This document shows, one piece after another, positions 1,979 to 63,883 of a stretch of DNA of 64,000 nt; position 1 is the stretch's first letter; each line of letters begins with the position of its first letter. Source of the DNA: a virus (lineage: Duplodnaviria; Heunggongvirae; Uroviricota; Caudoviricetes; Crassvirales); IMG/VR virus record IMGVR_UViG_3300037280_000040, positions 20,379 to 84,378 of that record, one strand, 5' to 3'. Both the position numbers and the translations under genes were made by a program. The notes below the pieces were generated by a model. That model did not search any database. It was not told where the DNA came from and saw nothing but the letters and a program-made list of their open reading frames with translations.

Positions 1979-2558
1979 CTTTATAGTATAATAATGTTGG
2001 ATTATTCTTATGTATATCTACTGGGAATTCTTCAAAAGTTGTAAACTCTTTAATATTAAAAGGTCTAGTAATTAAATGCCAACCATTTAATGTAGGAATT
2101 TTACCTAATACATTTACTTCAAAACCTGATTGACACTTATTAATACTGTCAGTATAAACATTTATCACATCCTCATTAAAGAAATCTAAATCAACTATCC
2201 ACAGTTTATCACCAGTAGTATATTGACCACATACACTATCAAAAGCTGATTTAACTGACCAAAACTGGTCATTAAGTATCTTATCAGTTACTTCCTTTAG
2301 CATATAAAAAGCTAACTTTTTATAGTTTCTTCTATTTAAGCCAATATAAGCTCTAGCATTAAAGAACTTACATAACTTTTTAATCTCGTCCTGAATAGAA
2401 TCATAGTACTCTAAAGTACTTATATAATAAGTTTTAATAATCCTATTATTATTATTCTCATCAGGATTTTCTTTTCTCCTTCTTATAATTTGTAGAAAGT
2501 AGAAATCACCTTCTTTAAATTTAAGAAATTGCTTAATTAATTCAAAATTATCAATCAT
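1959..2558 (-). CDS. Hypothetical protein (199 aa)
   Basis: ORF. No motif recognised. Confidence 0.4.
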   Translation of the reverse strand: MIDNFELIKQFLKFKEGDFYFLQIIRRRKENPDENNNNRIIKTYYISTLEYYDSIQDEIKKLCKFFNARAYIGLNRRNYKKLAFYMLKEVTDKILNDQFWSVKSAFDSVCGQYTTGDKLWIVDLDFFNEDVINVYTDSINKCQSGFEVNVLGKIPTLNGWHLITRPFNIKEFTTFEEFPVDIHKNNPTLLYYKDGKEIE

Positions 2559-3364
2559 AATATTTCTTCTTTAATAAGTATTTCTTTTACTTTAATAATT
2601 AAATCTTCAATAGTACCATTATTTTCAATTACATAATCAAACTTATAATCATCTAAAGCAGTTTCAGATTCATGTTCTATAGCTAAAGATTTTATTGCAG
2701 CATCAAATATATTAGGTCTATTAACTCTAATAGTTATACCATTTCTATCTTTAATAGCTTTAGCTTCATTAGGAAATCTACAATCAGTTATAATCCAATT
2801 AGGATAACCATTATTATATCTTTCAGGATTAGATAAAATTGTCATTTCAATTTGTCCTCCAAAACCAATATTTCCAGTAGGTTTTACTTTATATTCATAT
2901 CCTTCATTAGGAGTATAATCCCCCATAGTAGCATTAACCCAAATATCAGGATGAATTATTTGTCTACCACATTGAGTACCTATTAATTGTAATAACTTTC
3001 TAGGTGTTAAAGGAACTTGTTTACATTCACAAAATGAACAATTTTCTTTATCTAAATTTTTACATACATATTCTTTGGGTTGATTCCATTCCTCACCTAA
3101 TTCAGTCTCTTTAAATTTTTGGTTTTCAAGTTGTTCTCTTGTACATCCTATTAAAAGACATACAATATCTTTTAATTTATCTGCAAACTTTTTAATTTCA
3201 ACTCCTGATACCTTACTTAAGTCTACAGTAGCTAATTCTTCTATAAATACATCAGGTGGATAATATCTTCCTCTAACTTCTTTAGTCATATAAAGATGAT
3301 ATTGAATTATTTTACCTACTAAGTCTTTTCCCGACCCTATCTTACCACTAACCCCTATTAACAT
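2555..3364 (-). CDS. P-loop NTPase, putative (deoxy)nucleotide kinase. It has an inserted Cys cluster, CSFCEC.
   Basis: The N-terminal Walker A, MLIGVSGKIGSGKD, resembles phage dNMP kinases. It sits between thyX and the DNA polymerase. Confidence 0.5.
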   Translation of the reverse strand: MLIGVSGKIGSGKDLVGKIIQYHLYMTKEVRGRYYPPDVFIEELATVDLSKVSGVEIKKFADKLKDIVCLLIGCTREQLENQKFKETELGEEWNQPKEYVCKNLDKENCSFCECKQVPLTPRKLLQLIGTQCGRQIIHPDIWVNATMGDYTPNEGYEYKVKPTGNIGFGGQIEMTILSNPERYNNGYPNWIITDCRFPNEAKAIKDRNGITIRVNRPNIFDAAIKSLAIEHESETALDDYKFDYVIENNGTIEDLIIKVKEILIKEEIL

Positions 3365-3725
3365 TCTTTTCCTCCTTTTCTTTATCTTTTAAAGTGATAT
3401 AATTATCTAAAAGGTATTTAGTTTTAATAGCTATTTGTCTGTACTCTAAATCATTATCTTTATCATCTAAAGCTATTAATAATATAGCTGGATAAGCATG
3501 TTTATCTTCATCATTATAAATCCAACAATTTTTAATAGCTTTAAATCTAAACCCTGATTTTTTATTAATAAATATCCTTTCTTTATCTACAGTAGTTTGC
3601 ATTTTACAAAGTAAATATATACCAAATAGAAATATAATACTAACAATACCTAATACAAGTATCAATTTTAATATATGTGGGTCCATTATTTTAAAATTTA
3701 AAAGTGGCACTATTACTAATGCCAC
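3348..3725 (-). CDS. Small membrane protein
   Basis: Hydrophobic stretch ILKLILVLGIVSIIFLFGIYLL. Confidence 0.35.
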   Translation of the reverse strand: MALVIVPLLNFKIMDPHILKLILVLGIVSIIFLFGIYLLCKMQTTVDKERIFINKKSGFRFKAIKNCWIYNDEDKHAYPAILLIALDDKDNDLEYRQIAIKTKYLLDNYITLKDKEKEEKNVNRG

Positions 3726-3883
3726 TTATTTATTATTAATCACTTAACTCTTTATTAAGAAGTCTTTTTACTCTTCTTTTGTATATTCTCATAAGTTGTG
3801 TTTTACCTATACTTGGTTTAAAATCACTTTTTCTATCACATCTTTTTGATATAATATACTTTCTAAATAATCCTTTTTCCATA

Positions 3884-4129
3884 TTAATGAATCCAATATT
3901 TAGCTGTTTCAGGTACTGCAACTAATTTAACTGATTTACAGAATATAGCAGCTGCTTCATCCATAGCTTTTTTTAAATTTGCTGCTACTTCATCTACTAT
4001 TTCATCAGGAGATTCAACTAAGTACTCATCATGTACATCATTAGGAATCCAAACTGTAAACAATAGATTATTTCTAAGTAAATAATTAAAGAATCTAATA
4101 CCTGCTATTTTTGTAACTATAGCTGCTGT
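3884..4129 (-). CDS. DNA polymerase I family (PolA), 3' exon. It carries motif C and the C-terminus.
   Basis: Manual translation of the minus strand gives TAAIVTKIAGIRFFNYLLRNNLLFTVWIPNDVHDEYLVESPDEIVDEVAANLKKAMDEAAAIFCKSVKLVAVPETAKYWIH*. VHDE is PolA motif C. It joins in frame to ...NAPVQG of exon 1. Confidence 0.7.
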   Translation of the reverse strand, partial: TAAIVTKIAGIRFFNYLLRNNLLFTVWIPNDVHDEYLVESPDEIVDEVAANLKKAMDEAAAIFCKSVKLVAVPETAKYWIH

Positions 4130-4918
4130 CAGCTTTGTTATCTTATAGGCTCTTTATCCTATAATTCAATACCTTTAACTTTCGGTATTGCTCGGACTAT
4201 ATCTTAAAATATTATTACAAAAATTTATAAGTTCTTGTGTGGTAGCAGAATTTTTCATAGAGTTAGCTTTCTTACTGATAATCATAATGTTATTTTTAGT
4301 GTAACCAATACTATTATCTATCCTATCTAGAGATGGACTATACTCGTAGTTCCCCTTACTGCCTTTAACTAAAGGAACAAGTAATATAGGACAAATATCA
4401 GGAATAATTATATCTTCTACTGTTAAAGTAAATTCCATATTTTTTCTTTCTGCCCTCTTTTTAGCTGCATTTAGCATACCTACTTTATAAGGAATATCCT
4501 TTTTTAAAGAATTTCTCTTTAAAAGATTAGTTCTTTCCTTAAAACTAGTATCATATAACCTTCTAAATTGTCTCATAGACATATCTTCTGGTTTAGATTC
4601 TATACAATCTATGCAAGCCCACTCTCTTTTATACTCTCCCTTATAAGCAATTCTAAAAGAATCTAGGGGAAGTAATCTTCCACATTTTTTACAAATTTTT
4701 GTTTCCATACATATAGTTATTTATTACTTACACAAAGGTAAGTAATAATTTTGATATATGCAAATATTTTACCCCTTTTCTTGGTGTTTTACCTTCCCAT
4801 AGGGAATCCATACACTAGTCTCTACACCTTCTACTTATTACTAAGTAGCTTGGCTCGGTATTCCCATCTCAGGGTTCACCGAATTTAAGGGTTTTAAATA
4901 GGGCACAACTTTATGTCC
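4130..4918 (-). mobile_element. Group I intron interrupting the PolA gene, with an HNH endonuclease ORF in the P8 position
   Basis: On the minus-strand RNA there is an R-like element, GGUGUAGAGACUA (plus 4816-4828), and an S element, AAGAUAUAGUCC (plus 4194-4205). Exon 1 ends in U and the intron ends in G. A homologous core with compensatory stem changes is present in the RNR intron. Confidence 0.7.
4175..4708 (-). CDS. HNH homing endonuclease encoded inside the PolA intron
   Basis: The N-terminal CKKCG...CIDC zinc ribbon and SLDRIDNSIGYTKNNIMIISKKANSMKN resemble the second HNH ORF at 9137-9805. Confidence 0.6.
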   Translation of the reverse strand: METKICKKCGRLLPLDSFRIAYKGEYKREWACIDCIESKPEDMSMRQFRRLYDTSFKERTNLLKRNSLKKDIPYKVGMLNAAKKRAERKNMEFTLTVEDIIIPDICPILLVPLVKGSKGNYEYSPSLDRIDNSIGYTKNNIMIISKKANSMKNSATTQELINFCNNILRYSPSNTES

Positions 4919-6724
4919 ACCCTGTACAGGTGCATTTAAAGCATTTCTCTCATAACCACTTTTAGTCTGAAAGAATTTACTTACATCTAACATCATTTGA
5001 GGTCTATCATCTCTATTACTTCCATTAGCTATCCATTGCTGTTTAACTACTCTATACTCTGACCAAAACTCATAATCCATTGATTTTTCAATCGCTTTTA
5101 ATTCTTTCCAATCATGTATAAACATTTTATGACCAGTTATAGAATTAATAAGAATATAACCTTTATCCCACATATCTTTCTTTACTCTTTTAAAGTAAAC
5201 TTCTATATTAGGTAACCCAGTTAAATAAGATTTTTCAATAGCATTACCTTGTTCTAAAGGTAAAGATAAATTTCTTGCAATAGTTGAACCATTTCCTCCA
5301 TAATGTATTGAAAATTTAGCTTTTTTTGCTAATGTTCTTAAATCAGGTCTTTTAGGTTTCACTTCTTCTTCAGATAAAATATCTAAATCTTTAGGAAAGC
5401 AAATTTTAGCAACAAAACTATGTCCATCTCTTTTTCTAGTATCATTGTAAAATTCAATAAGTTTTTGTTCCTGAGATAACTCAGCAAATATAAAATCTTC
5501 TTGAGCAGTATAATCACAATCAATTAAAGTATAGCCACTTTGAGCTACAAAACTATGTCTTGTCTCATCATTATTAGGTAGATTTTGTAGGTTAAGATGC
5601 TCTATATTATTAGTTTTATCTTTACCACCACAACTTAATCTACCAGTGTCCATCATCTGATTAAAATTAGTATGAATTCTACCACTAATAGGATTTATTT
5701 GGTCTATAACACCTTGTCCATAAGTACTTACTACCTTATCAAAACCTTTATAATCTAAATAAGGTTGGGTAATAGTTGATACATCTTTCTGTAAACTAAT
5801 TACTTTAGCTTCAACAGATTTTTTCATCAATCCAGTTTTCTTATCTTTAGTAAGTAATTTAAATCCTAAAATTTCAAACAACTTAACTACTTGAGGAGAA
5901 CTAGCCCAATTAATATTACATACAGGTTCAGCATTAAAACCTTCAAATAAATCACCTTGTAAATCAGTTTCTGTAAATTTTAATAATCTTGAATCAGTTT
6001 TACTATTATCTACTACCCATTTATTAAGTACTATTCTAGAATCTTCTAATTTCTTAGAATCATTAGCCATTTTAGACTTCCACTTCTCAATATCTAACTT
6101 AATGCCACTATACTCAATATAAGCAAGTACTTTAACAAATTCATTTTCAACTCTAGCAGCTGAATGTAAGTCTTTTTCTGTTAGAGCTAACTCTTGAGCA
6201 TCTTTGATTTGACTAAGATATTTTACATCATTACAACCATATTCTATAACTTCTTCTGTTAAAGCTCTTTTAATATTACCTCTTTCTGATTTATCAAGAT
6301 AAATGTTTAGATAATTACCAGCACAGCCTTGTAAACCCATGCTTCTTTTACCTGGAGGATAACCCATATAGAGTAATTTCTCTACTACAAAAGTATCATA
6401 AACATTCCTTATAACAATTCTTTTATGATACAAGAATTGTAAATCAAATTTAGCATTATGTAATATAAATAGCTTAGAAGAATCTTCTAATAATGGCTTT
6501 AATAATTCAATATTGATAGTATAATCTATAGCAAATTGATTCTCAAAATCTCCCAACTGAAGTAATAATAATGCTTTTGTATAAACATCTAATCCTTCAG
6601 TTTCAGTATCAAGACCTATGATAGGTTTATCAGCAAAATAATCTAAACAAAATTGTAAATTACATACTGATACTCTATCATAGGTATTGAATAGTTGAAC
6701 ATTATTAGTTATAAAATACTTCAT
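4919..6724 (-). CDS. DNA polymerase I family (PolA), 5' exon. It carries the 3'-5' exonuclease domain and polymerase motifs A and B.
   Basis: Exo I is DTETEGLD. Motif A-like is LIDCDYTAQEDFIFAELS. Motif B is RTLAKKAKFSIHYGG. The conserved ERNALNAPVQG lies just before the splice point. The 24 codons that follow it are intron read-through. Confidence 0.75.
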
Positions 6725-6987
6725 TACTTAAATGTAATTATACAACCTGTTCCAGGAATAAAATCAATAAATCTTACAATAAATCCCTCAATATCAGAAC
6801 CTAATCTAATATTGGGACCATCTACTATGTTTACATAAATATGATTAAACTCATCATATTCAGGTATAATCCCTTCACTAGCTTTAACAATATAAGTTTT
6901 AGAGTCAATTCCTTCAGTTACAGAGTTTAATTTCTGTAAATAATTATTAGCTCCATTTTTACAATTTAACTTTATGATTTTGTCCAT
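6724..6987 (-). CDS. Hypothetical protein (87 aa)
   Basis: ORF whose stop abuts the PolA start. Confidence 0.35.
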   Translation of the reverse strand: MDKIIKLNCKNGANNYLQKLNSVTEGIDSKTYIVKASEGIIPEYDEFNHIYVNIVDGPNIRLGSDIEGFIVRFIDFIPGTGCIITFK

Positions 6988-8013: not shown

Positions 8014-9153
8014 TTATGTTAATGATTGATGAATAAAGAAACATTTAGAGTAAGTACATTCAGAGCACTTAACACAACCTGCTTCATGAACTAGTGGTTT
8101 ACCACAATCAGGACAAACTTCTCCTTTAACTTCTTCTTTAGGAATATATTTACCTAATACTCTACACATTGCTGAACTAAATGAAGTAATATTATCATTT
8201 ATTTTTCTAGTAGTATCTATAATAAAAGATATTGCAGCCCCATGTCTTAATAACATAGAAGTATAAATAGTACAAGCTTTTTCTTCAATCTTATCATTAG
8301 CTAATTGTAAATTAGGATAAACATAAAATTCAGAATTAAACTGATATTGTCCTTTTTTAACTTTAGTAATAGTACCAATAGTATTCTTAGCTAATTTTTC
8401 TCCTAATGAATCTTTCTTTAATTCATAAGCAAATATCTCAAAAGGTTTGCCATCTAATAATCCTACTATAACTGCATAACTAATACCTTGAGATTTAACT
8501 ACATACATTTCAGCAGGTAATGTTTTAGGTCTTTTGGGAGCAGAATTTTCTTTAATTGTACCTAATTTTTCTTCAGTAGTAATGTTATTTAATATACCAT
8601 CTCTACAACCATCTCTATAAATAGTAATACCTTTAAGATTTTTATTCCAAGCCATCATAAATATCTGAGAAATAGTCTCTTCTTTTACATCCTTAGGTAA
8701 ATTAATAGTAGAACTAATAGAATGAGTAGTATATTTTTGAACTATTGATTGTAATTCAATTCTATCCTCCCAATCAATACTAGCTGAATCAGAGTTGTAC
8801 CAAGGAGATTTTTTAAAATAATCTTCTAACTCAAATGTTTTTATTCCTTCACAACCATCATCATATTTAAGTTGAATCCATTGTTTAAATGGTTCATGTA
8901 AAACATAGAATTTAGTAAATTTCTCTCCAGTAATATCAGTAAAATCAACTCTATCATTCTCAGACATACATTTCTTACTTCTCTCATAATAAGGAGCAAA
9001 TATAGGTTCAATACCTGAAGATACTTGTGCCATAATACTTACAGTACCAGTTGGTGCTACAGTAGAAAAAGAAACATTCCTCCTCCCATACTTTTGCATT
9101 TTCTCATATTGTTGTGGAAAATTTTCTTTTATAAATTTATACCAAGCATTCAT
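8014..9153 (-). CDS. Ribonucleotide reductase large subunit, C-terminal fragment, translated as a separate ORF
   Basis: RRNVSFSTVAPTGTVSIMAQVSSGIEP matches the RNR alpha LRNSLLIAPMPTASTSQI...ESIEP region. It ends in a Cys cluster, CPDCG...CVKCSEC. Confidence 0.7.
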   Translation of the reverse strand: MNAWYKFIKENFPQQYEKMQKYGRRNVSFSTVAPTGTVSIMAQVSSGIEPIFAPYYERSKKCMSENDRVDFTDITGEKFTKFYVLHEPFKQWIQLKYDDGCEGIKTFELEDYFKKSPWYNSDSASIDWEDRIELQSIVQKYTTHSISSTINLPKDVKEETISQIFMMAWNKNLKGITIYRDGCRDGILNNITTEEKLGTIKENSAPKRPKTLPAEMYVVKSQGISYAVIVGLLDGKPFEIFAYELKKDSLGEKLAKNTIGTITKVKKGQYQFNSEFYVYPNLQLANDKIEEKACTIYTSMLLRHGAAISFIIDTTRKINDNITSFSSAMCRVLGKYIPKEEVKGEVCPDCGKPLVHEAGCVKCSECTYSKCFFIHQSLT

Positions 9154-9805
9154 ATTTTTTTCTTTTTTGATTTAATGCAATTTTGGTGCACATATTTATA
9201 AAATGTTCTTGAGTATATACATTTTTCATTATATTAATATCCCTATGTACCCATTGTACATTTCCTTCAATATAACCCTTTGTAGAATCTATTCTATCCA
9301 AAGAAGCATCAAAAGCTCCAAAATCTAGATTACCACTATAGACATTTTTTTTATTAATAAGTACTCCTGGTTCAAATAGTTTTATATCTATACCAGATAA
9401 ATTACATTTTTTATTTTGTTTAATAAATAATTCCCATAAATATTCTATAGATATATTAAATTCATGACCTCTTGACTTGGCTGCATTTTTATAATGCCAA
9501 TATAAAGATCTTGGTAAATCCCCTATTCCTTGATGTTTAGGAGAATATCCAACTGAACATATTCTGCCATTTAATTTATTATTTTTCCATTTTTCTCTAT
9601 TAGAACATTTTCTACATCTCGTAGACTTTTCTGATTTTAAAGTATCTCCTCTAATTAATTTTTCAGCTCCACATTTAATACATTGTACTTTTATAAATCC
9701 TCTATGTATATTATTAGTTTTATTCTTAACATTATATACAGTTGAATCAATTACTTTATAAATACCATATATTTCATCTTCTTTAAAATTATATTGTCTT
9801 GGCAT
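9137..9805 (-). CDS. HNH homing endonuclease inserted between two RNR fragments
   Basis: It has a zinc ribbon, CIKCG...CRKCS, and SLDRIDSTKGYIEGNVQWVHRDINIMKN. Its start overlaps the upstream RNR fragment stop as TAATG. Its end overlaps the downstream fragment start by 17 nt. Confidence 0.6.
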   Translation of the reverse strand: MPRQYNFKEDEIYGIYKVIDSTVYNVKNKTNNIHRGFIKVQCIKCGAEKLIRGDTLKSEKSTRCRKCSNREKWKNNKLNGRICSVGYSPKHQGIGDLPRSLYWHYKNAAKSRGHEFNISIEYLWELFIKQNKKCNLSGIDIKLFEPGVLINKKNVYSGNLDFGAFDASLDRIDSTKGYIEGNVQWVHRDINIMKNVYTQEHFINMCTKIALNQKRKKYECLV

Positions 9806-10677
9806 TATAATACTTTTTCTAATTCTGCATCATAACCATCAAATGTACCTCTTATTATAGCTAAATCAATAGTAGAATCTAATTCTCCCATCATTTTAGT
9901 ATAAAGAATTAAATCAGTATATTCTAAAGACTCTTCACTACCATATCTTATACCTAACATAGCAAATACATCTGCTAATCCAGTAAATCCTACTCCAGCT
10001 CTTCTACCTTTTTTAGCAGTTTCTTGGATTTTAATCCATAAATCTAATTCTAATATATCAGGTTCTTCTGCTCTACTAATATGGTCTATAATTCTATCAA
10101 TTGCTTCAACTTCTAAATCAATTAAATCATCTGCTAATCTCATTGTTTTATAAGCTACTTCATATAACTTATCTGTCTCAAATTGAGCAGAATCTGTATA
10201 AGGATTAGATACAAAACTAGCTAAATTAATATGAATTAATCTACAAGAATCATAAGGTTGCATAAAGATTTCACCACAAGGATTTGTTGTAACTCCTCTG
10301 TATTGAGGATATACTCCATCAGGACTATAATCATGATGATTATCTTCAAACATAATTCCTGGCTCAGCAGTATTCCAAGCACAATGTACTAGAGAATTCC
10401 ATAATTCTTTTGCTTTTACTTTCTTAAACCATAATGGATTTAAACTATTTTGAGCTGAATATAACTCATTATAATTAAAATCTCCTATAATCATATTAGC
10501 TCCTGCATTAATAGGAAACTGTTGTATAAAATCTTTATTTTTATCTACTGATTCCATAAATTCAGTAGTAAGCTTTACTGATATATTAGCACCAGTAATC
10601 TTATCTAAATTCTGTTTAGAAGTAATAAAATCTCCACTATCAGGATGTACTATACTAATAGTTTCCATTAATGCCCC
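9805..10677 (-). CDS. Ribonucleotide reductase large subunit, middle exon with the active site
   Basis: The NPCGEI active-site motif and RRAGVGFTGLADVFAMLGIRYGSEESLEY match RNR alpha. It joins in frame to exon 1 as GGRR|GALMETISIVHPD. Confidence 0.7.
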   Translation of the reverse strand, partial: GALMETISIVHPDSGDFITSKQNLDKITGANISVKLTTEFMESVDKNKDFIQQFPINAGANMIIGDFNYNELYSAQNSLNPLWFKKVKAKELWNSLVHCAWNTAEPGIMFEDNHHDYSPDGVYPQYRGVTTNPCGEIFMQPYDSCRLIHINLASFVSNPYTDSAQFETDKLYEVAYKTMRLADDLIDLEVEAIDRIIDHISRAEEPDILELDLWIKIQETAKKGRRAGVGFTGLADVFAMLGIRYGSEESLEYTDLILYTKMMGELDSTIDLAIIRGTFDGYDAELEKVL

Positions 10678-11657
10678 CTATTTGGACTATATCACACCTT
10701 AATTTAATAATTAAGGCTTGGGTTCTAATTCTGGTTATTAAGGGAAACCAATTTCCCTCCAGTAGTCTCTACACCTTCTATAGAATGGTCTATAGCTCGG
10801 CTCGGTATTGCATTATCACTAATGGTTTCACCGAATTCTCCCAATTCAAGACGCAGGGCATTGAATTTATCAAATTTTCTCTTTAATGGTATAAAATCTC
10901 TATCTTGGTATAACCAATCATAGAATTTTAATACATCTTTTTTATTAGAGAATTCTAATACAAAACAATCAGATTTTGTCTTAGGTTTAATAGAAGTAGA
11001 TATCCCTATTTTATATAGTATTTTTTGAGTAGCTAATAAAAGACCATAAGAAGAAGTAAAAGACACTTTTTGCCATATTCTTCCTCTATCTATTCTTTTG
11101 CCCCAAGTTATACAACCATCAGCATCAAATAAACCTTGTATCATATACTTTTCTAAACTATTTTTTAAAATAGGAAGATTTCTTTCTTTTTTAAGAGTAT
11201 TTCCTAAAAATTTAGATAATCCATTTATCTTTCTAGTAATACTAACATCAGGGAATTTTTTAGTAATTTCATTTCTAGTTAAATCTTCAAATGTATTACA
11301 TCCTAATATATTACCTAAAAAATCAATCAATTCTTTATCCCTATGTTGTAGTACTAATTGTACCATATCATTATTTATATAACTATCAGCAGCTATAAAT
11401 CCAATAAGATAAGCCCATTCTTTTGTTTCTATTTTATCTAAAATTAAAGTTGGATTTTTTTTATGAATCATTAAATTAGTTAATTCATACTTTTTAATCC
11501 AATATCTTAAAGATAAAGGTAATAACCCTAAATCTCTTTCTATTTGTCTTACACTTTTTCCCTCTAATAGGAAATTTGATAATTGTTCTTTTGTAATATT
11601 ACATACTCTATTCATTTTCTGTATATATTTAATTAAAATTTAATTAAGAACTTGTTT
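10678..11657 (-). mobile_element. Group I intron in the RNR gene, carrying a LAGLIDADG endonuclease ORF
   Basis: The R-like element is at plus 10762-10774 and the S-like element, GUGAUAUAGUCC, at plus 10684-10695. The core is homologous to the PolA intron, and the variable hairpin shows compensatory changes (ctatag/ctatag here, ctactta/taagtag there). Exon 1 ends ...cgU and the intron ends ...AAAUAG. Confidence 0.7.
10725..11615 (-). CDS. LAGLIDADG homing endonuclease, double-motif, encoded inside the intron
   Basis: The two motifs are LIGFIAADS and GLFDADGCI. Confidence 0.7.
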   Translation of the reverse strand: MNRVCNITKEQLSNFLLEGKSVRQIERDLGLLPLSLRYWIKKYELTNLMIHKKNPTLILDKIETKEWAYLIGFIAADSYINNDMVQLVLQHRDKELIDFLGNILGCNTFEDLTRNEITKKFPDVSITRKINGLSKFLGNTLKKERNLPILKNSLEKYMIQGLFDADGCITWGKRIDRGRIWQKVSFTSSYGLLLATQKILYKIGISTSIKPKTKSDCFVLEFSNKKDVLKFYDWLYQDRDFIPLKRKFDKFNALRLELGEFGETISDNAIPSRAIDHSIEGVETTGGKLVSLNNQN

Positions 11658-12224
11658 ACGTCTACCTCCCTGAGCCACTTCTCTAGTGATTTCAGAGTCT
11701 ACTTCCATAAAAGAAACAGGTCCTGTAGAAGTCTTTGCAGCATTGTTTACAAAAGCTCCATTAGGTCTAAGTAAAGATAAATCTTTACCTACTCCTCCAC
11801 GTCTCTTCATAAGTTGAGCTTGCTCAGTTCTTTTAAGCATAATGCCACCATAAGAATCACTAGGTTGTCCAATTACAAAACAATTAGATAATGAACCTAT
11901 TTGAGTAGTATTACCTAACATACTCATTACTGAACCACCTGGAATGACATATTTAAAATTCTTAAATAATCTATAAATATCAGAATATATATCAGCAGAA
12001 GTAGCTTTTAATAAATCTACTTGTAGCTTTTTTCCATAATCTGATAAAGAATTAACATCATAAGATTTATCTGATTGTTTATAATTCCATTCAATCCTAG
12101 TAAACTCTTTTGCCATTCTTTTGTGCATATCATCAGGAGTTATTTCTCCTTCAATAGCATACTTACTTTTCCAAGCTTGTGTAGCTAATTCATCTCCATT
12201 AAAATACTTAAGTATTTCTTTCAT
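11658..12224 (-). CDS. Ribonucleotide reductase large subunit, 5' exon. No ATP cone is present.
   Basis: GSLSNCFV is the first catalytic Cys motif and VAQGGRR follows it. The ORF tail KQVLN* is intron read-through. Confidence 0.7.
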
Positions 12225-28813: not shown

Positions 28814-29224
28814 TGGTGGAGCTAGAGGGAGTCGAACCCTCGTGTTATCTTAATACTTACTAATAATCTTATATATGCTTAGTATTTACTGTACTTTTTC
28901 AGCTATTTCTAGTAATAGAGTGAAATATTGAAAACTCTAGGACTGTTTGGGACACAAACAGACACCACCATGCAATGAGATTGCAATACTTAATATTCCT
29001 CAGTAAGGAGGCAATATATCTCAAGACTTTTTAAGAAAGTTTAAACTTTTTACAACTTTATTTGATAAGGTTGTTGTCACCCCAGTTCTCTTACGCTACT
29101 AAAGCAAGCTTTGCAGCAGGAACAAAAACAATAGTTTTGCCTGTTATTCTTCTTTGAGTATTTAAAGGACTCCTCCATGCATAAATTACTACTTTTCTTG
29201 AGATAGTCTAAACCAACTAGCCCC
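28814..29224 (-). ncRNA. ssrA: tmRNA-like RNA (ssrA-like), about 411 nt
   Basis: The 5' end, GGGGCUAGUUGGUUUAGACUA, parallels E. coli GGGGCUGAUUCUGGAUUCGAC. The 3' end is GAGGGUUCGACUCCCUCUAGCUCCACCA, with a T-arm, an acceptor stem with a G3:U wobble, and an encoded CCA. A tag-like ORF reads AAUAACAGGCAAAACUAUUG...GCUUUAGUAGCGUAA, giving GKTIVFVPAAKLALVA* from a GGC resume codon or AKLLFLFLLQSLL* from GCA. Confidence 0.55.
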
Positions 29225-30493: not shown

Positions 30494-31075
30494 ATGTTTA
30501 GTCCACTATTTCTCAAAATAATAATCAATAGATTTGGTAATATGAGATATTTTACTTATATTTGTATTTTAAGATTTAAAATTATGAATAAAGAAACTTT
30601 AATTAATCTGATTAATCAGAATTTAAGCACTTGGCAGATTGCTGAACAATCTAATACTACTCAAGCTAATGTAAGATATTGGCTTAAAAAGTATGATTTA
30701 CAAACTATTAGAACTATTAATAAAGAGAATGAATTAAAATTATGCCCTAAATGTAATACATCTAAGTTAAAATCTGAATTTTATCAATATAAGAAAAGTA
30801 GTTCTTATTGTAAATCTTGTATTGTTGAATCTAATTTAGAAAGACAAAGAGATACTAAATCTTTAGCTGTTGAATATAAAGGAGGAAAATGTTCTATATG
30901 TGGTTACAATAAATCTATTGCAGCTTTAGAATTTCATCATTTAAATCCAACAGAAAAAGATAAAGATTACTTTAATATGAGAGCAGGATTAACTCCTACT
31001 CTAAAAATAGAATTGGATAAATGTGTACTTCTTTGTGCAAATTGTCATAGAGAAACACATCATTTAATTCAATAA
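30494..31075 (+). CDS. Free-standing HNH endonuclease with an N-terminal HTH. It is the only plus-strand gene in the minus-strand block.
   Basis: The HNH motif is EFHHLNP...CANCHRETHH, with a Cys ribbon CPKCN...CKSC. The HTH-like region is STWQIAEQSNTTQANVRYWLKKY. Confidence 0.6.
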   Translation: MFSPLFLKIIINRFGNMRYFTYICILRFKIMNKETLINLINQNLSTWQIAEQSNTTQANVRYWLKKYDLQTIRTINKENELKLCPKCNTSKLKSEFYQYKKSSSYCKSCIVESNLERQRDTKSLAVEYKGGKCSICGYNKSIAALEFHHLNPTEKDKDYFNMRAGLTPTLKIELDKCVLLCANCHRETHHLIQ

Positions 31076-38585: not shown

Positions 38586-38625
38586 AATGTTCTTAAGTAC
38601 TAAGATTAATAATTTATTTAATTGT

Positions 38626-38698
38626 GATTCAGAAGGGATTCAAACCCTTGACCCCTACCTTAGAAGGGTAGTGCTCTATTCAGCTGAGCTACTGAACC
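38626..38698 (-). tRNA. tRNA-Arg (anticodon UCU)
   Basis: Manual fold: acceptor GGUUCAG/CUGAAUC, D stem GCUC/GAGC, anticodon stem CUACC/GGUAG with loop CUUCUAA, T arm AAGGG-UUUGAAU-CCCUU. Confidence 0.7.
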
Positions 38699-42885: not shown

Positions 42886-43586
42886 ATCTGATTAGAGTAT
42901 TACTTTCTAATATCATCCAATCTTATATAAATAAGAAGAAATGTAAGTATTGGATTAGAAGTTGGGTTGTAAGTATACAAATATAGTATATTGAGATGTC
43001 CCCAATACAGATAAAAATGACTTATATATAAGTAAATTTCAGACACCCAAGTAATTGAGAAAAGGTAAAGGTAAAGTCTGTTGAGGGATAAAAGTAGAAA
43101 TACTTTAAGACGTGGTTTATGAAGTTATAAGTTTATAAGGACTCTCAGCAATGAGAAGTTTTTTAGTCATTAACAATTTGGCTAGGACTTCTTATATCAA
43201 TAATTAAATAAATAGAAATATTAAAAACAAATAAGGAATAGAACTTAATAGGGGATTGGGGATTGTTGTATGGCAAAGAAAACTCCATTTAAAGCCTTAT
43301 TAAAGTTTATAAATTTGTAAATAAATAAATATTAATAGTATGAAATTAAAAGTAATGAACTTTAAGATTAAACTAGATATGTTTATGGTTAAATATAATA
43401 ATAATATTATTACAAGTATTATTGCTATGTTGCCATTACTATATCTATTATTTTTACTGTAGGAGAAGGAGATAAATACATAAGAATCAAGGTCTAGGAA
43501 GATAGAAAAAATTAAATATAGTTTATTTTTATCTTCTTAATCAAGTTATATGCTTAGAAATTTTATAAAAGATTTGGTAATCTCAA

Positions 43587-43608
43587 TTATTTTACATATC
43601 TTTGTATA
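43587..43608 (+). promoter_or_regulatory. Promoter motif TTTTACATATCTTTGT, with the -7 box at 43597-43604
   Basis: It shares 22 nt of context, caattattttacNtatctttgt, with the copy at 42861. Confidence 0.5.
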
Positions 43609-43794
43609 GACTTTAAGAGATGTCTATATAATTATTAATTTTTAAACTCATATCCTACTATGAAAACAACTAAGAAATCACCTAAAAAGGGTGGTGGCAA
43701 ATGCTAAAGATTTAGTAATTAAGGGGATAAGTAGTTATTCCCTTTTTTATTATTAATTTATAAAGTTTTAACTATATTTATTTGGTATATTAAG

Positions 43795-43816
43795 TAATTA
43801 TACTTATCTTTGTGTA
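43795..43816 (+). promoter_or_regulatory. Promoter motif TACTTATCTTTGTG, with the -7 box at 43805-43812, upstream of gene 43836
   Basis: Motif match. Confidence 0.5.
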
Positions 43817-44123: not shown

Positions 44124-44194
44124 AGTTTCCTAGTGTAATGGTAGCACAAGAGTCTTTGGTCCTCTTAGTTAAAGTTCAAATCTTTAGGAGACTA
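44124..44194 (+). tRNA. tRNA-Gln (anticodon UUG)
   Basis: Manual fold: acceptor AGUUUCC/GGAGACU, D stem GUG/CAC, anticodon loop CUUUGGU, T arm UAAAG-UUCAAAU-CUUUA. Confidence 0.55.
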
Positions 44195-44203
44195 CAATAA
44201 TAT

Positions 44204-44275
44204 GCCTTTATAGTGTAATGAATAGCACACGATTCTTCTAAGATTATAGTATAGGTTTGAATCCTATTAGGGGTA
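44204..44275 (+). tRNA. tRNA-like, probably tRNA-Arg (UCU), with a weak anticodon stem
   Basis: Acceptor GCCUUUA/UAGGGGU is wobble-rich. The T arm is AUAGG-UUUGAAU-CCUAU. The anticodon loop is CUUCUAA, but only 4 of 5 stem pairs form. Confidence 0.4.
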
Positions 44276-44290
44276 CAATAATTAATAAAT

Positions 44291-44557
44291 ATGATACAAA
44301 GAGTTCCTGTATTGAGAGAATGTTCTTATAAAGAATATAATGATAACATAGATAAACATCCTGATGAATATCTTAGATTATTTGTAGTTGATAGTAATAC
44401 TGAAAGTACTGAGGATATTACAAAAGAGGTTGATGATAATATTGATGCAATAGGTAATACTGATAAGAATAAGTTTTACAAAGTATTAGGATTAGTTAGT
44501 TCTCAAGAGTTAGAAAAAGATATACAACAAACACAACAAAGTAGTTTGTTGAATTAA
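44291..44557 (+). CDS. Hypothetical acidic protein
   Basis: ORF. Confidence 0.35.
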   Translation: MIQRVPVLRECSYKEYNDNIDKHPDEYLRLFVVDSNTESTEDITKEVDDNIDAIGNTDKNKFYKVLGLVSSQELEKDIQQTQQSSLLN

Positions 44558-44718
44558 ATCATAAATGTTTTTAATAAAGTTGATTTAGCTATACTTAGTC
44601 TGTGAAGATAGAGATAGCACAAAAATATAGATATAGTTCAGTTGCTAGAATGCTTGGTTTGGGACCAAGAGGTCAAGAGTTGGAGTCTCTTTATCTATAC
44701 AATTTATTTTAGAATTAA

Positions 44719-44932
44719 AATGGAAGAAGAAAAGAAAACATTAGAACCTTATCAACTAAGAGTTATTGATGAGTTTAAAGATATTGATTTTAAAGTAAGA
44801 AAGATAGAGAAATTTATATTAACTGATGTATATAAAAATTTATCTAAATCAGAACAAAGTATGATAGACTTACAGGTTATGTATATGACTGGTTATTATA
44901 AAGTTTTAATGGAAAGAATAAATAGATTTTAA
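44719..44932 (+). CDS. Hypothetical small protein. The start was moved to the internal MEEEKKT.
   Basis: ORF. The upstream part of the listed ORF is unlikely to be coding. Confidence 0.35.
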
Positions 44933-44935
44933 TAA

Positions 44936-45009
44936 GGGGTCTTAGCTCAATTGGCTAGAGCGATTGCTTTGCAAGCAATAGGTAGTGGGTTCAATCCCCA
45001 CAGATTCCA
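44936..45009 (+). tRNA. tRNA-Ala (anticodon UGC)
   Basis: Acceptor GGGGUCU/AGAUUCC with G3:U70. D stem GCUC/GAGC. Anticodon stem AUUGC/GCAAU with loop UUUGCAA. T arm GUGGG-UUCAAUC-CCCAC. Confidence 0.75.
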
Positions 45010-45014
45010 CATAT

Positions 45015-45088
45015 GTTCTAATAGCTCAATTGGTTAGAGCTTTTGACTGTTAATCAAAGGGTTGTAGGTTCAAGTCCTACTTAGAACG
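45015..45088 (+). tRNA. tRNA-Asn (anticodon GUU)
   Basis: Acceptor GUUCUAA/UUAGAAC. Anticodon stem UUUGA/UCAAA with loop CUGUUAA. T arm GUAGG-UUCAAGU-CCUAC. Confidence 0.75.
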
Positions 45089-45111
45089 CAGTATTAATTT
45101 AATTAAAAACA

Positions 45112-45414
45112 ATGGCACAAATTGAAGTAATGTTAGAGATTATAGATGATGTAATTCCTTTATATCCTGATTTAGTATCAAAAGATTATAAAGAAACTAT
45201 CATATATGATTATAAAAATTTATTAGATACTAAAGAATCTCTATATAAATATAGAGAAATAGTAAGAGAATTAGAAGTAGCTTTAAAAGAAAGAGAATAT
45301 AAATTTAATAAACAATCTCAATTTTTTAATATTGTTTATAAGACTGAAATTAAACAAGGAGTTGATAAACCTGAATATGCTGATACTATGCATGTAAAGG
45401 GAAAAGTATATTAA
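45112..45414 (+). CDS. Hypothetical protein
   Basis: ORF. Confidence 0.4.
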   Translation: MAQIEVMLEIIDDVIPLYPDLVSKDYKETIIYDYKNLLDTKESLYKYREIVRELEVALKEREYKFNKQSQFFNIVYKTEIKQGVDKPEYADTMHVKGKVY

Positions 45415-45415
45415 T

Positions 45416-45643
45416 ATGACTTGGGAAGAAGCTTACTTAGAGATGGAGAAAGGTAATATTATTACCACTCCTAATAGTCCTAATTATTGTTTACTATATG
45501 CTCCTAATCATATATTAGTATTTTGTGAACCTGATAGATTATATCATATTAGTAGTAATAAAAGAATTAAAGAAGTTACTGATTATATAGTTGATAATAC
45601 TAAGAGAGATATTATTAATAATTTAGTAATAAAACTAAAATAG
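45416..45643 (+). CDS. Hypothetical small protein
   Basis: ORF 2 nt after the previous stop. Confidence 0.35.
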   Translation: MTWEEAYLEMEKGNIITTPNSPNYCLLYAPNHILVFCEPDRLYHISSNKRIKEVTDYIVDNTKRDIINNLVIKLK

Positions 45644-45677
45644 TTTATTTTTATCTTCCTACTCAATTTTAAAGCGT

Positions 45678-45938
45678 ATGAATAGATACTTTATAGTTAA
45701 TCCAAATCTTTATATATCTAAAGATAAATACATAGTAAGACTAACTGAATACAATATTGATACTCATATCTTTAAAGGAACTAAGATTAGTTGGATTACA
45801 AATGATGAGGATGGTAAAATAGAAGATATTAGAATAGAAGATATTGAATTGGATGATAATAAATTATCAATATTTAAAGAAATAAATAAAAGAATTTTTT
45901 ATAAGATATTATTAGTACTATTAAAGAATTCTTATTAA
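45678..45938 (+). CDS. Hypothetical small protein
   Basis: ORF. Confidence 0.35.
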   Translation: MNRYFIVNPNLYISKDKYIVRLTEYNIDTHIFKGTKISWITNDEDGKIEDIRIEDIELDDNKLSIFKEINKRIFYKILLVLLKNSY

Positions 45939-45956
45939 CCTTAAAAACTTAATAAA

Positions 45957-46397
45957 ATGGACAATTTTGATTTAGATTTAAGTCTAAGACCTAAGGGTGG
46001 TAGTGGTAATACTAGTGGTACTAGTACTTTTAAAGATTTTATATGTAAACTTGAAAGTTATAAAACTAAATTTAAGAATTTACATTGGGGAGCTATGAAT
46101 GATACTTTACATTTAAGAGTAGACCAATTCTTAGATGAGTTAACTGACTTCCAAGATGAATTATCTGAGACAGGGCAAGGTATTATAGGATTCCAATTTG
46201 GACCTAATGATATAGTTACTACTCACTTAAATTATACTGACCCAATAGTAGCTTTAACTACTCTTAAAGATAAAACATTAGCATTTCATAAAAGTATTAA
46301 TTCTAATCCTGAATTAATTGGTTTAGTAAATTCTGTAGAAGGATTTATGACTATAGTAGGAAAATTCTTATATTTATTTAGAATAGCTGCTAAGTAA
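45957..46397 (+). CDS. Hypothetical protein (146 aa)
   Basis: ORF. Confidence 0.4.
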   Translation: MDNFDLDLSLRPKGGSGNTSGTSTFKDFICKLESYKTKFKNLHWGAMNDTLHLRVDQFLDELTDFQDELSETGQGIIGFQFGPNDIVTTHLNYTDPIVALTTLKDKTLAFHKSINSNPELIGLVNSVEGFMTIVGKFLYLFRIAAK

Positions 46398-46406
46398 TTA
46401 GTCTAA

Positions 46407-46479
46407 GGACCAGTAGCTCAGTTGGTAGAGCACCTGACTCATAATCAGTAAGTCCCAAGTTCAATCCTTGGATGGTCCA
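46407..46479 (+). tRNA. tRNA with a CAU anticodon, Met or Ile2-lysidine type
   Basis: Acceptor GGACCAG/AUGGUCC with a G7·A66 mismatch. D stem GCUC/GAGC. Anticodon loop CUCAUAA. T arm CCAAG-UUCAAUC-CUUGG. Confidence 0.55.
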
Positions 46480-46480
46480 C

Positions 46481-46553
46481 TGTGTGGAAAGCTCTTATGG
46501 TGAGAGTGCCAAATTGTGGATTTGGAGGGAGGGTTCGAGTCCCTACTACACCC
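46481..46553 (+). tRNA. tRNA-like, probably tRNA-His (GUG). The acceptor/D-stem junction is irregular.
   Basis: Clean anticodon arm CCAAA-UUGUGGA-UUUGG. T loop UUCGAGU. Discriminator C, as in tRNA-His. Three A residues separate the acceptor and D stems. Confidence 0.4.
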
Positions 46554-46558
46554 TTAAT

Positions 46559-46631
46559 GGAAATATGGCAGACATGATGTATGCACTAGTTTGAAGCACT
46601 AGCTAAGGGAGTTTGAGTCTCTCTGTTTCCA
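46559..46631 (+). tRNA. tRNA-Phe (anticodon GAA)
   Basis: Acceptor GGAAAUA/UGUUUCC. Anticodon stem CUAGU/ACUAG with loop UUGAAGC. T arm GGGAG-UUUGAGU-CUCUC. Confidence 0.55.
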
Positions 46632-46700: not shown

Positions 46701-46723
46701 TATCAACAAATAAAAAATAAAGT

Positions 46724-62392: not shown

Positions 62393-63883
62393 ATGGCACA
62401 ATTAGGAAGATTCCAAACTTACGGTTTCAGCCACTGGAAAGGTCTTACTAAAGACAATCACTTAGGAGCTATATTCCAAAGAGCACCACAGAAAGCAACT
62501 AACTTAATGGTTCAGTTGTTAGCATTACAAAGAGGTAAATCTCTTGAAACTTATCTTTCTCAATTCCCTATTAAGGAATTTGATACAGATGAGGAATATA
62601 CTTGGGATGTTATTGGTAGCTCAAGAAGAAATATTCCTTTAGTAGAAGCTAGAGACCAAAATGGTAATGTTATCACTTCAGGTAATGCTGGTGTTGCAGG
62701 TGAACCTTTTTACTTAGTATTTAACGAGGATTGGTTTGCTGATGGTAATGTTATTGTAGGGGAAAAGAATGAAGTTTACCCATTGAGATTGCTTGCTGAA
62801 GGTAAAGCAGAAGGTTCTAATACAGTCTATAAGGTTGAACTTATGGGTGGAGTTATGACTGGTATGCCTTTTGATGAGTTAACCTTAGGTAAAAGATTTA
62901 GTGTTGAATACTCTCCAGTAGAAAGAGAAATGTCAAGAGGTGTAGGTGATGTAAGATTCAGCTCTCCAATTGCAATGAGAAATGAATGGTCTCAAATTAG
63001 AATCAAACATAAAGTTCCTGGTTCTATGTTGAACAAAAAATTAGCTATTGGTATACCTTTCTTAGATGAAAGTGGTAAGAAAGTAGTTGATAATATGTGG
63101 ATGCACCACGTAGATTACCAAGTAGAAACAACTTTTTCTGAGGAAAAAAATAATGTTACTATGTATGGTAGAAGTAATAGAAATAGAAATGGTGAATATT
63201 TGAACTTTGGTAAATCAGGTAATGTTATTAAACAAGGTGCTGGTTTAAGAGAACAAATGGAAGTATCTAATGTTATCTATTACAATAGATTCAGTTTAAA
63301 ATTAATTGAAGATGCTTTATATCAATTATCTTCTTCAAAATTAGCTTTAAATGACCGTGTATTCATTATGAAAACAGGGGAAAGAGGTGCTGCTCAATTT
63401 AGTAAAGTAGTATTAAATGAAGTATCAGGATGGACTGCATTCAAAATTAATGCTGATGCATTAGGAATGATTCAGAAAGTTCAATCACCTTTACATCAAA
63501 ATGCTTTAGCTGCTGGGTTCCAGTTCACTGAATTTAGAGCACCTAATGGGGTTACTGTAAAAGTAGAAGTTGATTCATTATATGATGATGAAATTAGAAA
63601 TAAAATTCAACATCCTGATGGAGGTCCAGCTGAATCATATAGATATGATATTCTTTATATTGGGTCTACTGACCAACCTAATATTCAGTTAGCTAGAATT
63701 AAAGGTCAAAATGATATTAGAGGTTATATTTGGGGTTTAAGAAATCCTTTTACTGGTGAAGTAAATAACTTTAATATGGCTCATGATGAAGATTCTGCTG
63801 TTATCCATAAAATGTGGACTGGTGGTGTATTTATCTTAGATGCTACAAGAACAATATCATTGATACCATCTATTCTTAGATAA
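62393..63883 (+). CDS. Major capsid protein (crAss-like, 496 aa)
   Basis: Its size and its position after the scaffold gene fit. A strong terminator follows. Confidence 0.55.
   Translation: MAQLGRFQTYGFSHWKGLTKDNHLGAIFQRAPQKATNLMVQLLALQRGKSLETYLSQFPIKEFDTDEEYTWDVIGSSRRNIPLVEARDQNGNVITSGNAGVAGEPFYLVFNEDWFADGNVIVGEKNEVYPLRLLAEGKAEGSNTVYKVELMGGVMTGMPFDELTLGKRFSVEYSPVEREMSRGVGDVRFSSPIAMRNEWSQIRIKHKVPGSMLNKKLAIGIPFLDESGKKVVDNMWMHHVDYQVETTFSEEKNNVTMYGRSNRNRNGEYLNFGKSGNVIKQGAGLREQMEVSNVIYYNRFSLKLIEDALYQLSSSKLALNDRVFIMKTGERGAAQFSKVVLNEVSGWTAFKINADALGMIQKVQSPLHQNALAAGFQFTEFRAPNGVTVKVEVDSLYDDEIRNKIQHPDGGPAESYRYDILYIGSTDQPNIQLARIKGQNDIRGYIWGLRNPFTGEVNNFNMAHDEDSAVIHKMWTGGVFILDATRTISLIPSILR

Follow-up and report, generated by a model that had tools for sequence, protein, structure and literature searches.

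The minus strand of a 64,000-nucleotide (nt) stretch of viral DNA (IMG/VR record IMGVR_UViG_3300037280_000040, positions 20,379 to 84,378; the whole stretch is referred to as the window) carries a family-A DNA polymerase gene, polA. Our analysis indicates with high confidence that this crAss-like phage gene is interrupted by a 789-nt group I intron which lies on the same strand and contains an endonuclease gene of its own, and this is the best explanation of the locus as a whole. A first-pass annotation of the window had proposed a group I intron splitting the family-A polymerase upstream of motif C, and the proposal is supported by four independent lines, namely the exons, the internal guide, a structure with covariation, and homology. 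Taken by itself, the S element gives no significant signal (one match at no more than one mismatch, compared to 2.6 expected by chance). The case is made by exon continuity, the P1/P10 guide pairing, covariation, and homology to validated introns together. In addition, the boundaries follow the group I splice-site rules, the intron is present in some related polA genes and absent from others, and it is better conserved than the exons that flank it.

The polymerase exons and the proposed splice junction

Exon 1 (4919..6724) comprises 602 codons and encodes the 3′-5′ exonuclease domain and polymerase motifs A and B, as assigned from the open reading frame (ORF) list, the Pfam families DNA_pol_A_exo1 and DNA_pol_A, and alignment to Taq polymerase. 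The ORF list places it in a 627-amino-acid (aa) frame (6724..4841) in which, as first noted, polymerase homology stops after ...ERNALNAPVQG; the Gly codon is GGU, with its last base, U, at 4919. Past this base the frame holds 25 unrelated sense codons (GHKVV...PSQAT) followed by three stop codons in a row. The 627-aa ORF does mis-terminate by reading through, as had been suggested, although by 25 sense codons and not by 24.

The expected continuation was found in the same frame, which resumes at 4129 with TAAIVTKIAGIRFF...VHDEYLVES...KYWIH* and runs down to 3884. Exon 2 (3884..4129; 81 codons and a stop codon) begins with TAAIVTKIAG and includes motif C within VHDEYLVES, and it was delimited by translation, by gapless alignment with homologues, and by completion of the Pfam profile. 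There is no start codon in the ORF list near the beginning of this exon, and the first candidate is a TTG 22 codons in. The intervening sequence (4918..4130) is preceded by a U and ends in a G at 4130, as the first-pass annotation had it, and the gap is in frame as described; its length is 789 nt (263 x 3), however, and not 790. Since 789 is a multiple of 3, exons 1 and 2 lie in one frame.

Joining 4919 to 4129 results in a 683-aa protein, and the predicted spliced junction reads ...GCACCUGUACAGGGU|ACAGCAGCUAUAGUU... at 4919|4129. The spliced protein matches positions 29-379 of the 381 in the Pfam DNA_pol_A profile (173 bits, 8.9e-51), compared to positions 29-303 (128 bits) for the unspliced ORF, and it matches DNA_pol_A_exo1 at 3e-21. 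In the Pfam and Protein Data Bank (PDB) alignments, a single spliced polypeptide holds the 3′-5′ exonuclease domain together with motifs A, B, and C of the polymerase. Alignment to PolA through motif C, which had been proposed as a check, was performed with phmmer against the PDB: the junction aligned free of gaps, with 'ksgyernalnapvqgtaaivtkiagirff...vhdeylvesp' opposite 'reaaerkafnmpvqgtaadlmklamvklf...vhdelvleap' of Taq polymerase, and the Klenow structures aligned likewise through VHDE.

Uninterrupted homologues support the same junction. A tblastn search against phage records recovered intact crAss-like polA genes (cr108_1, cr85_1, DAC15, and IAS virus), which matched 100% of the query as one unbroken alignment at 40-45% identity. 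The three closest IMG/VR polA relatives (L080-L082) are also uninterrupted, with 64-69% identity over the C-terminal 280 aa, and align to the spliced protein without gaps through SGYERN(S/A)LNAPVQG|T(S/A)AI(V/I)TKIAGI. Megablast of positions 3700-6800 against phage records gave no match.

Two alternative pairs of splice sites were considered and rejected. Moving both sites 1 nt upstream leaves the protein the same (GGG for GGU, both Gly) but breaks the U(-1) and omega-G rules, and moving both 1 nt downstream results in the loss of the invariant Thr. The boundaries were placed at 4919|4918 and 4130|4129 because this is the only pair that satisfies both the U(-1) and the terminal-G rules. The insertion point is approximately 30 codons upstream of motif C, between residues that we take to be the equivalents of G850 and T851 of E. 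coli Pol I, in the R841..N845..Q849-G-T motif (Klenow numbering).

Guide pairing, core helices and covariation

The intron, delimited by splice-site rules, covariation, profile match, and fold, begins with a G at 4918 and ends with the terminal omega-G at 4130. Its internal guide sequence (intron positions 10-19, GUUGU-GCCCU; 4900..4909) pairs with both exon ends. In P1, the GCCCU of the guide (4904..4900) forms 5 bp with the AGGGU at the end of exon 1 (4923..4919), with a U4919.G4904 wobble at the splice site, and in P10 the GUUGU (4909..4905) forms 5 bp with the ACAGC at the start of exon 2 (4129..4125).

The 5′ half of the core extends from the 5′ strand to the 3′ strand of P3 (4771..4892) and is supported by covariation, the minimum free energy (MFE) fold, an nhmmer match at 4910-4782, and a partial match to the Rfam group I model RF00028. 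It includes P3 (ACCCUU/AGGGGU, 4892..4887 with 4776..4771), P4 (UUCGGUG/UACCGAG, 4883..4877 with 4860..4854), P5 (within 4874..4863), and P6/P6a with a GUAA tetraloop (4853..4827). P7 pairs G(A)GACUA with UAGUCC (4822..4816 with 4199..4194), and its 5′ strand is the R-type element GAGACUA. Between this strand and the 3′ strand of P3 are the nested P7.1/P7.1a helices (4815..4784), in which GUGU/ACAC encloses UUCCC/GGGAA; they are supported by covariation, with double changes at 3 of the 4 pairs in the former and 2 of the 5 in the latter. A reading of the P7.1 internal loop as an 11-nt tetraloop receptor fitted poorly and was dropped. Helices between P7 and the 3′ strand of P3 are a hallmark of subgroup IA in the Michel-Westhof classification, and the intron, which has such extra helices, is of the IA type.

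P8 (4206..4770) is formed by AAAAUAUU (4770..4763) and AAUAUUUU (4213..4206), has compensatory changes at 4 of its 8 pairs, and encloses a 549-nt loop that contains a promoter-like site and most of the endonuclease ORF. The 3′ half of the core (4144..4205), which is supported by covariation and by a profile match at 4208-4130, consists of J8/7 and the 3′ strand of P7, followed by P9 and P9.1. The S element, AAGAUAUAGUCC (4205..4194), comprises J8/7 and the P7 3′ strand, and both the R and the S elements named in the first-pass annotation could be located. The P9 hairpin lies at 4190..4167 and the P9.1 hairpin, with the conserved loop AUAAAGAG, at 4163..4144, and the 3′ tail of the intron, AGAUAACAAAGCUG, ends at 4130.

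Covariation was scored on an alignment (A3) of ORF-deleted "mini-introns" from 12 related polA intron sequences. P10 was excluded from the main count and scored separately because the 3′ ends of four of these sequences are misaligned by one column. Standard pairs filled 97.6% of the cells of the structure, compared to a mean of 81.2% in shuffled alignments and 35-48% when the 3′ partner was slid by 1-3 columns. Changes on both sides were found at 36 of the 66 pairs, in 128 cells versus 37 expected, and the covariation score was 0.486 versus 0.166 in the shuffles (none of the 500 reached 0.486) and 0.05-0.08 in the slid versions. Compensatory changes were present in every helix except two that consist of a single pair; the outer pair of P7, for example, switches from G-C to A-U in step (GAGACUA...UAGUCC versus ACGACUA...UAGUCU). 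P1 was found in all 12 sequences with 5-6 bp and P10 in all 12 with 4-6 pairs, and changes in the guide keep step with those in the exon: at a neighboring site 7 nt upstream, GUCGGA is paired with UCCGAU, and in one relative (L002) the P10 pairing is CCACU with AGUGG. The unconstrained MFE fold of the 250-nt ORF-deleted intron of the window (-57.9 kcal/mol, z=-3.4) recovered P3, P4, P5, P6a, P7.1, P7.1a, P8, P9, and P9.1.

When the fetched loci were scanned with profiles of the two intron halves, many related introns came up, some of them with no ORF. Six ORF-less relatives scored 58-100 bits on RF00028, above its gathering score of 50. In a search with a profile of those six alone, the window gave one match at 4910-4782 (E=3.4e-21) and another at 4208-4130 (E=1.3e-10), of which the latter ends exactly at the proposed 3′ splice site. 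A 3′ signature, AAGAUAUAGUCYGANC...GAUAAAGARC, was found in more than 120 IMG/VR contigs, and the intron belongs to a large phage intron lineage.

From the sequence we infer that the intron would be self-splicing. In the pre-mRNA, the guide would pair with the last five bases of exon 1 (P1, with the U.G pair at the cleavage site), and an external guanosine bound in P7 would attack after U4919. The guide would then also hold the first five bases of exon 2 (P10), and the freed 3′-OH of exon 1 would attack after the terminal G4130, joining ...PVQG to TAAIV... and restoring the 683-aa polymerase with motif C. If splicing failed, translation would stop 25 codons into the intron and the enzyme would lack the catalytic VHDE motif.

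The endonuclease gene and its promoter-like site

The intron ORF (4175..4708, 534 nt) encodes a 177-aa protein, identified by PHROG matches, homologues, and an AlphaFold2 model, with an N-terminal CxxC...CxxC zinc finger and a C-terminal beta-beta-alpha-Me-like domain (PSLDRIDN..GY...N....IS..AN.MK). The ORF had been placed between the R and S elements in the P8 loop. This is correct for its start, whereas its 3′ end (approximately 55 nt) overlaps the P8 3′ strand, J8/7, and the P7 3′ strand, and its stop codon is past the S element in the P9 loop. Many of the homologues in alignment A2 read through the entire 3′ core.

The closest PHROG matches were 3322 "endonuclease" (1e-29), 1035 "endonuclease VII" (2e-24), and 3118 "HNH endonuclease" (3e-10). 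There was no Pfam match even at E=10, no NCBIfam match, and no nuclease in a PDB sequence-profile search, in which only zinc-finger/PHD noise was returned. A total of 364 homologues were found at E<1e-5, and the closest of these (89% identity) is at the same polA site in another contig (L203); the sequences thus far recovered point to an endonuclease family that lacks a curated model. The invariant residues are C6, C9, C32, and C35 of the zinc finger, and P125-S-x-D128-R129-I-D131, G135-Y136, N140, S145, N149, and K152. The canonical first His is absent, and in its place stands an Arg that does not vary across 30 homologues. The motif D128-R129-I-D131...N140...N149 retains the Asp and Asn metal ligands.

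The AlphaFold2 model (pLDDT, or predicted local distance difference test score, 85.8) had PacI (PDB 3m7k/3ldy) as its top fold match, yet the two proteins have no detectable sequence similarity, and PacI is not involved in homing but is a restriction enzyme that works as a dimer. A Tyr could serve as the general base as it does in PacI, for Y136 is invariant and Y121 and Y123 are nearly so; the correspondence of the active sites was drawn from secondary-structure positions and not from superposition. On the basis of the model, the ORF product appears to be an atypical, His-less member of the beta-beta-alpha-Me (HNH) superfamily. The label "HNH" given to it in the first-pass annotation thus appears to apply at the level of the superfamily, going by the predicted fold and the PHROG names, but it does not extend to the canonical His or to a match with Pfam or NCBIfam models or with PDB sequences.

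Part of the apparent protein conservation in this family is driven by the RNA, because two of the conserved segments are translations of ribozyme elements. The C-terminal F-C-K-N-I-L-R-Y-S is the translated P8 3′ strand and S element, with LRYS corresponding to the S element itself (UUAAGAUAUAGUC), and the DKEP motif of the longer homologues is the translated P9.1 loop (GAUAAAGAGCC).

The Bacteroidetes promoter consensus consists of a -33 TTTG and a -7 TAnnTTTG. A promoter-like site of this type, TTTG-N20-TACCTTTG, is located in the P8 loop (4733..4764, minus strand) and ends 25 nt upstream of the ATG of the ORF, with the -7 element in the loop of an 11-bp hairpin (4748..4721). The TAnnTTTG is kept at the same position in the other members of the intron family that were inspected. 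The two-part pattern TTTG-N17-22-TAnnTTTG was modestly enriched in the window, with 8 sites found versus 3.6 expected, a count reached in 4 of 100 shuffles. Five of the eight have a 20-nt spacer and extended similarity, namely the intron site and four on the plus strand that were found by pattern scan (30533-30564, 43573-43604, 43781-43812, and 61152-61183). The sites at 30533, 43781, and 61152 end no more than 35 nt upstream of an ORF start, and the last of them, before the ORF adjoining the capsid gene, reads TTTGCATATATTAAGTTTTTTACATATCTTTG, compared to TTTGCATATATCAAAATTATTACTTACCTTTG in the intron. Weaker promoter-like variants are present at 42850, 53215, and 59870. The endonuclease may have a transcript of its own, apart from that of polA, as is the case for I-TevI in the T4 td intron, with the gene in the P8 loop expressed from a Bacteroidetes-type promoter (TTTG-N20-TAnnTTTG) and its 3′ end encoded together with the ribozyme core.

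Related introns, alternative explanations and known systems

Homologues of the intron ORF in IMG/VR led to at least nine further viral or metagenome contigs (L001-L007, L011, L203, and L204) with a homologous intron at a shared polA site, ...LN.P.QG cagggu|...G|AC.... In three other sequences (L095, L179, and the RefSeq phage cr116_1) the homologous intron is 7 nt upstream, after CCGAU, and the guide is changed to GUCGGA. In L010 and L017 the intron is apparently about 9 nt upstream, and the 3′ exon starts with AUUCAAGG or AUACAAGG (I-Q-G). The different positions within one polA motif suggest that the intron hops between sites as its guide is retuned.

L080-L082, the nearest polA relatives, lack the intron, and polA genes whose flanking exons have diverged carry it at the same site; this is the presence/absence polymorphism of a mobile intron. 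Compared to L203, the intron is 92.1% identical (96% in the 5′ core) and exon 1 is 77.4% identical at the nucleotide level, with exon 2 not available; compared to L204, the values are 87.8% for the intron, 74.6% for exon 1, and 66.7% for exon 2. The better conservation of the intron than of the exons suggests, at the sequence level, recent lateral spread by homing. In such a process, the enzyme would most likely nick or cut the intron-less polA of co-infecting related phages near ...CAGGGU|ACA..., and recombinational repair would then copy the intron in.

Several observations on the related loci concern the endonuclease and the density of introns. In L204/L205 (ENA contigs), the 88%-identical intron has a shortened endonuclease ORF of 135 aa with a 29-aa fragment upstream, which suggests that the endonuclease is decaying inside an otherwise intact ribozyme. 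In L016 (approximately 2516-3320) and L020 (approximately 2698-3500), endonuclease homologues are free-standing, directly downstream of an uninterrupted polA (QG|ESAEITK...), and these genes may be the intron-less form of the same mobile endonuclease. The viral contigs L166, L190, and L141 have 4-7 matches of the intron 3′ or 5′ half profiles within 2-5 kb, and their genes are densely packed with related, mostly ORF-less group I introns.

A broader reading can be offered as a tentative one that we consider possible but still rather improbable in its entirety. The ORF product would represent an uncharacterized His-less PacI-like beta-beta-alpha-Me homing endonuclease family (PSLDRID...N...N; more than 360 homologues, no Pfam family), the gene of which is interlocked with the ribozyme (LRYS and DKEP being the translated S element and P9.1 loop) and is uncoupled from polymerase expression by its own promoter, of a type found upstream of plus-strand genes next to the capsid gene. 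The ribozyme-endonuclease pair would have moved between sites at 0, -7, and -9 nt by guide retuning. An intron endonuclease of the phage PhiPA3 is reported to cut a competitor's gene during co-infection (PMC11620839). If the enzyme described here also cuts the polA of competitors in co-infection, it would be a weapon in the competition among the most abundant human gut phages.

A number of points weigh against the interpretation of the locus as a functional mobile intron. An intron covariance model had been suggested as a check, and the result was divided: the ORF-less relatives passed the gathering score, while Rfam at the gathering threshold returned only tRNAs over the whole window, and RF00028 in E-value mode on positions 3800-5200 gave 20.5 bits (4973-4721) and 14.5 bits (4287-4173) against the gathering score of 50. 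RF00028 misses the intron because the model cannot bridge the ORF in the 549-nt P8 loop, which explains the shortfall but does not remove it. P5 has only 3 bp, P1 has only 5 bp (there is an A opposite C-6, where relatives have G), and no P2 was found in the intron on inspection by eye. As for the promoter, TAnnTTTG by itself shows no enrichment across the window (91 found versus 105 expected). The greater conservation of the intron could also reflect, in part, RNA structural constraint rather than recent transfer.

Some of these points would be accommodated if the insertion were a decayed intron of group I origin that no longer splices, and polA a pseudogene or the contig that of a defective phage. 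The Rfam scores below threshold in the window and a P1 that is one pair shorter than in the relatives are compatible with this, and the shortened 135-aa endonuclease of L204/L205 shows that parts of the element do decay. However, all core helices are intact in the window, the U.G pair, the omega-G, and P10 are kept, the two exons remain open and conserved, as does the 177-aa ORF, and the polymerase is the replicative enzyme of the phage; we regard decay as unlikely. Slightly less probable still is that an endonuclease gene has split polA into two parts that are translated separately to give a two-subunit polymerase with no RNA splicing. The window has an apparent case of such an arrangement in its ribonucleotide reductase genes, where an ORF with a DRID-type motif (9805..9137) stands between two reductase ORFs with overlapping stop and start codons, and the homologous cr116_1 locus is annotated in RefSeq as two separate "DNA polymerase I" coding sequences (CDS). 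In polA, by contrast, exon 2 does not open with a start codon (the TTG 22 codons in is the earliest candidate), and the approximately 255 nt of non-ORF sequence around the endonuclease gene form a complete, covarying group I core with a guide that pairs with both exon ends. Separate translation is disfavored because this conservation of the ribozyme would serve no purpose if no splicing took place. Removal or bypass at the protein level, by an intein or stop-codon recoding (both reported in crAss-like phages, PMC7886860), or an intron of another class such as group II, is highly improbable and all but refuted, even though the insert length is a multiple of 3. Read in the exon frame, the insert has nine stop codons, three of them consecutive after codon 25, and no suppressor tRNA is encoded in the window; the intron ORF shows neither Hint/intein domains nor the features of a group II reverse transcriptase, and there are positive group I signatures. 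The group I intron therefore remains the preferred explanation.

The remainder of the window is consistent with a crAss-like phage and contains further mobile elements. A Crassvirus major capsid protein (PF23898, Crass_capsid, 660 bits) is encoded in the window and shares 70% identity with the protein of cr111_1 and 66% with that of cr108_1, both of the Steigviridae, Asinivirinae; by these sequence matches, the window can be assigned to a crAss-like phage (Crassvirales) with its nearest classified relatives in Steigviridae/Asinivirinae. The capsid gene (62393..63883) is uninterrupted, unlike that of cr111_1 (L208, NC_055880 10981-13396), the closest relative by capsid, where a "homing endonuclease" CDS divides the gene for the major head protein into two parts.

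A second group I intron is located in a ribonucleotide reductase gene (11657..10678, minus strand). Exon 1 of this gene is the ORF at 12224..11640, in which the exon ends with ..AQGGRR at 11658, and splicing would give ..GGRR|GALMETISIVHPD. A LAGLIDADG ORF (11615..10725; Pfam LAGLIDADG_3, 1.6e-12) occupies the P1 loop between the 5′ splice site and the guide, and the compact core extends from approximately 10880 to the omega-G at 10678. By eye, P1 (AGACGU/GCGUCU with a U.G), P10 (GGGGCA/UGCCCU), P4 (UUCGGUG/UACCGAG), and P7 (GAGACUA/UAGUCC) could be assigned. The polA-intron profiles matched this intron at E=4.5e-11 and E=2.9e-9, and nothing in Rfam matched it at E<=1. The DRID-type ORF at 9805..9137 (minus strand; 222 aa, motif SLDRIDSTKGYIEGNVQWVHRDINIMKN) lies between the reductase pieces 10668..9805 and 9153..8014, which match Pfam Ribonuc_red_lgC profile positions 83-341 and 367-523, respectively. 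There is no room for a ribozyme here because the ORF start overlaps the upstream stop codon and its stop codon overlaps the downstream ATG, and it looks like a free-standing endonuclease gene that splits the reductase gene into separately translated pieces.

Eleven tRNA genes were found at 38624-38698 (minus strand) and 44124-47412 (plus strand), for Arg (two), Gln, Pro, Ala, Asn, Met (two), His, Phe, and Leu. As none of the 11 is a suppressor, there is no sign of stop-codon recoding in the window. ARAGORN also called a transfer-messenger RNA (tmRNA) at 28814-29224 (minus strand) with the tag GKTIVFVPAAKLALVA*, which is probably a false positive because it was not reported by Rfam at the gathering threshold.

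In terms of annotation, the automatic gene call is wrong for the replicative polymerase, which is given as 627 aa and lacks motif C instead of 683 aa, and the same error is present in RefSeq cr116_1. Once the intron is recognized, the annotation of polA and the phylogeny based on it are put right in a set of gut crAss-like phages. The understanding of how group I introns work is unchanged, and the interest of the case is modest, consisting of the new site, the uncurated His-less endonuclease family, the overlap of the ORF with the ribozyme core, and the candidate promoter inside the intron.

Among known systems, the T4 td intron with I-TevI, together with the nrdB and nrdD introns, represents phage group IA introns in DNA-precursor and replication genes. 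The 3′ tail of the td intron (...AACAUAAUG) resembles that of the window intron, and the td endonuclease ORF likewise occupies a peripheral loop and has a promoter distinct from that of the host gene. I-TevI, however, is a GIY-YIG enzyme with its ORF in P6, whereas the window ORF is in P8 and its candidate promoter is of the Bacteroidetes -33/-7 type.

Group I introns in crAss-like phages, the same virus order, were described by Yutin et al. 2021 as dense in the Delta and Zeta groups, where many are in core genes (MCP, PolB, primase, as well as ATP_43b); polA was not named (PMC7886860). That report stressed mainly these two groups, and the present case indicates that Steigviridae-like crAss phages also carry mobile introns in replication genes. 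The polA of cr116_1 (NC_055882 35100-36040, L206) has the homologous ribozyme and a 47%-identical endonuclease, with the intron 7 nt upstream; in RefSeq it is annotated as two polymerase CDS and an "endonuclease" with no intron feature. In the cultured E. coli phage KarlSchell_Bas89 (L209, PQ850613 37835-40459), polA is annotated as a joined CDS with an "endonuclease" that is 24% identical to the window ORF, and the group I core matches are at a different polA site, at which exon 2 starts with ..IDGAGDAKLG.

Group I introns with HNH endonucleases in phage polA are a kind that has long been known, since SPO1. The published introns with HNH nicking endonucleases include those of SPO1 (I-HmuI), SP82 (I-HmuII), Bastille (I-BasI), Pf-WMP3 (I-PfoP3I), phiL7, and the T7-like phiI/W31 (I-TslI) (PMC3428280, PMC11878797), and nearly half of the polA genes of Bastillevirinae are split (PMC11878797). 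Their sites, in E. coli Pol I codons, are 674 (SPO1, SP82, Bastille, and Pf-WMP3), 676 (phiL7), and 881 (phiI and W31), and every intron at these sites belongs to IA2 and has its ORF, if the location is given, in P6a (PMC3428280). The window intron is similar to them in its host gene, in its IA-type ribozyme, in the absence of P2 and the presence of P10, in encoding an endonuclease that is probably of the beta-beta-alpha-Me type, and in its insertion into a highly conserved catalytic region. It differs in three respects of organization. Its ORF is in P8 instead of P6a, its P7.1/P7.1a helices are nested while the P7.1/P7.2 of the IA2 polA introns are side by side (PMC3428280), and its endonuclease is unrelated in sequence to the I-HmuI-type HNH enzymes, having no HNH/NUMOD Pfam match and no catalytic His. 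Finally, the insertion site corresponds to Q849-G850|T851 in E. coli numbering and as such differs from the published codons 674, 676, and 881, to which it adds a further phage polA site.

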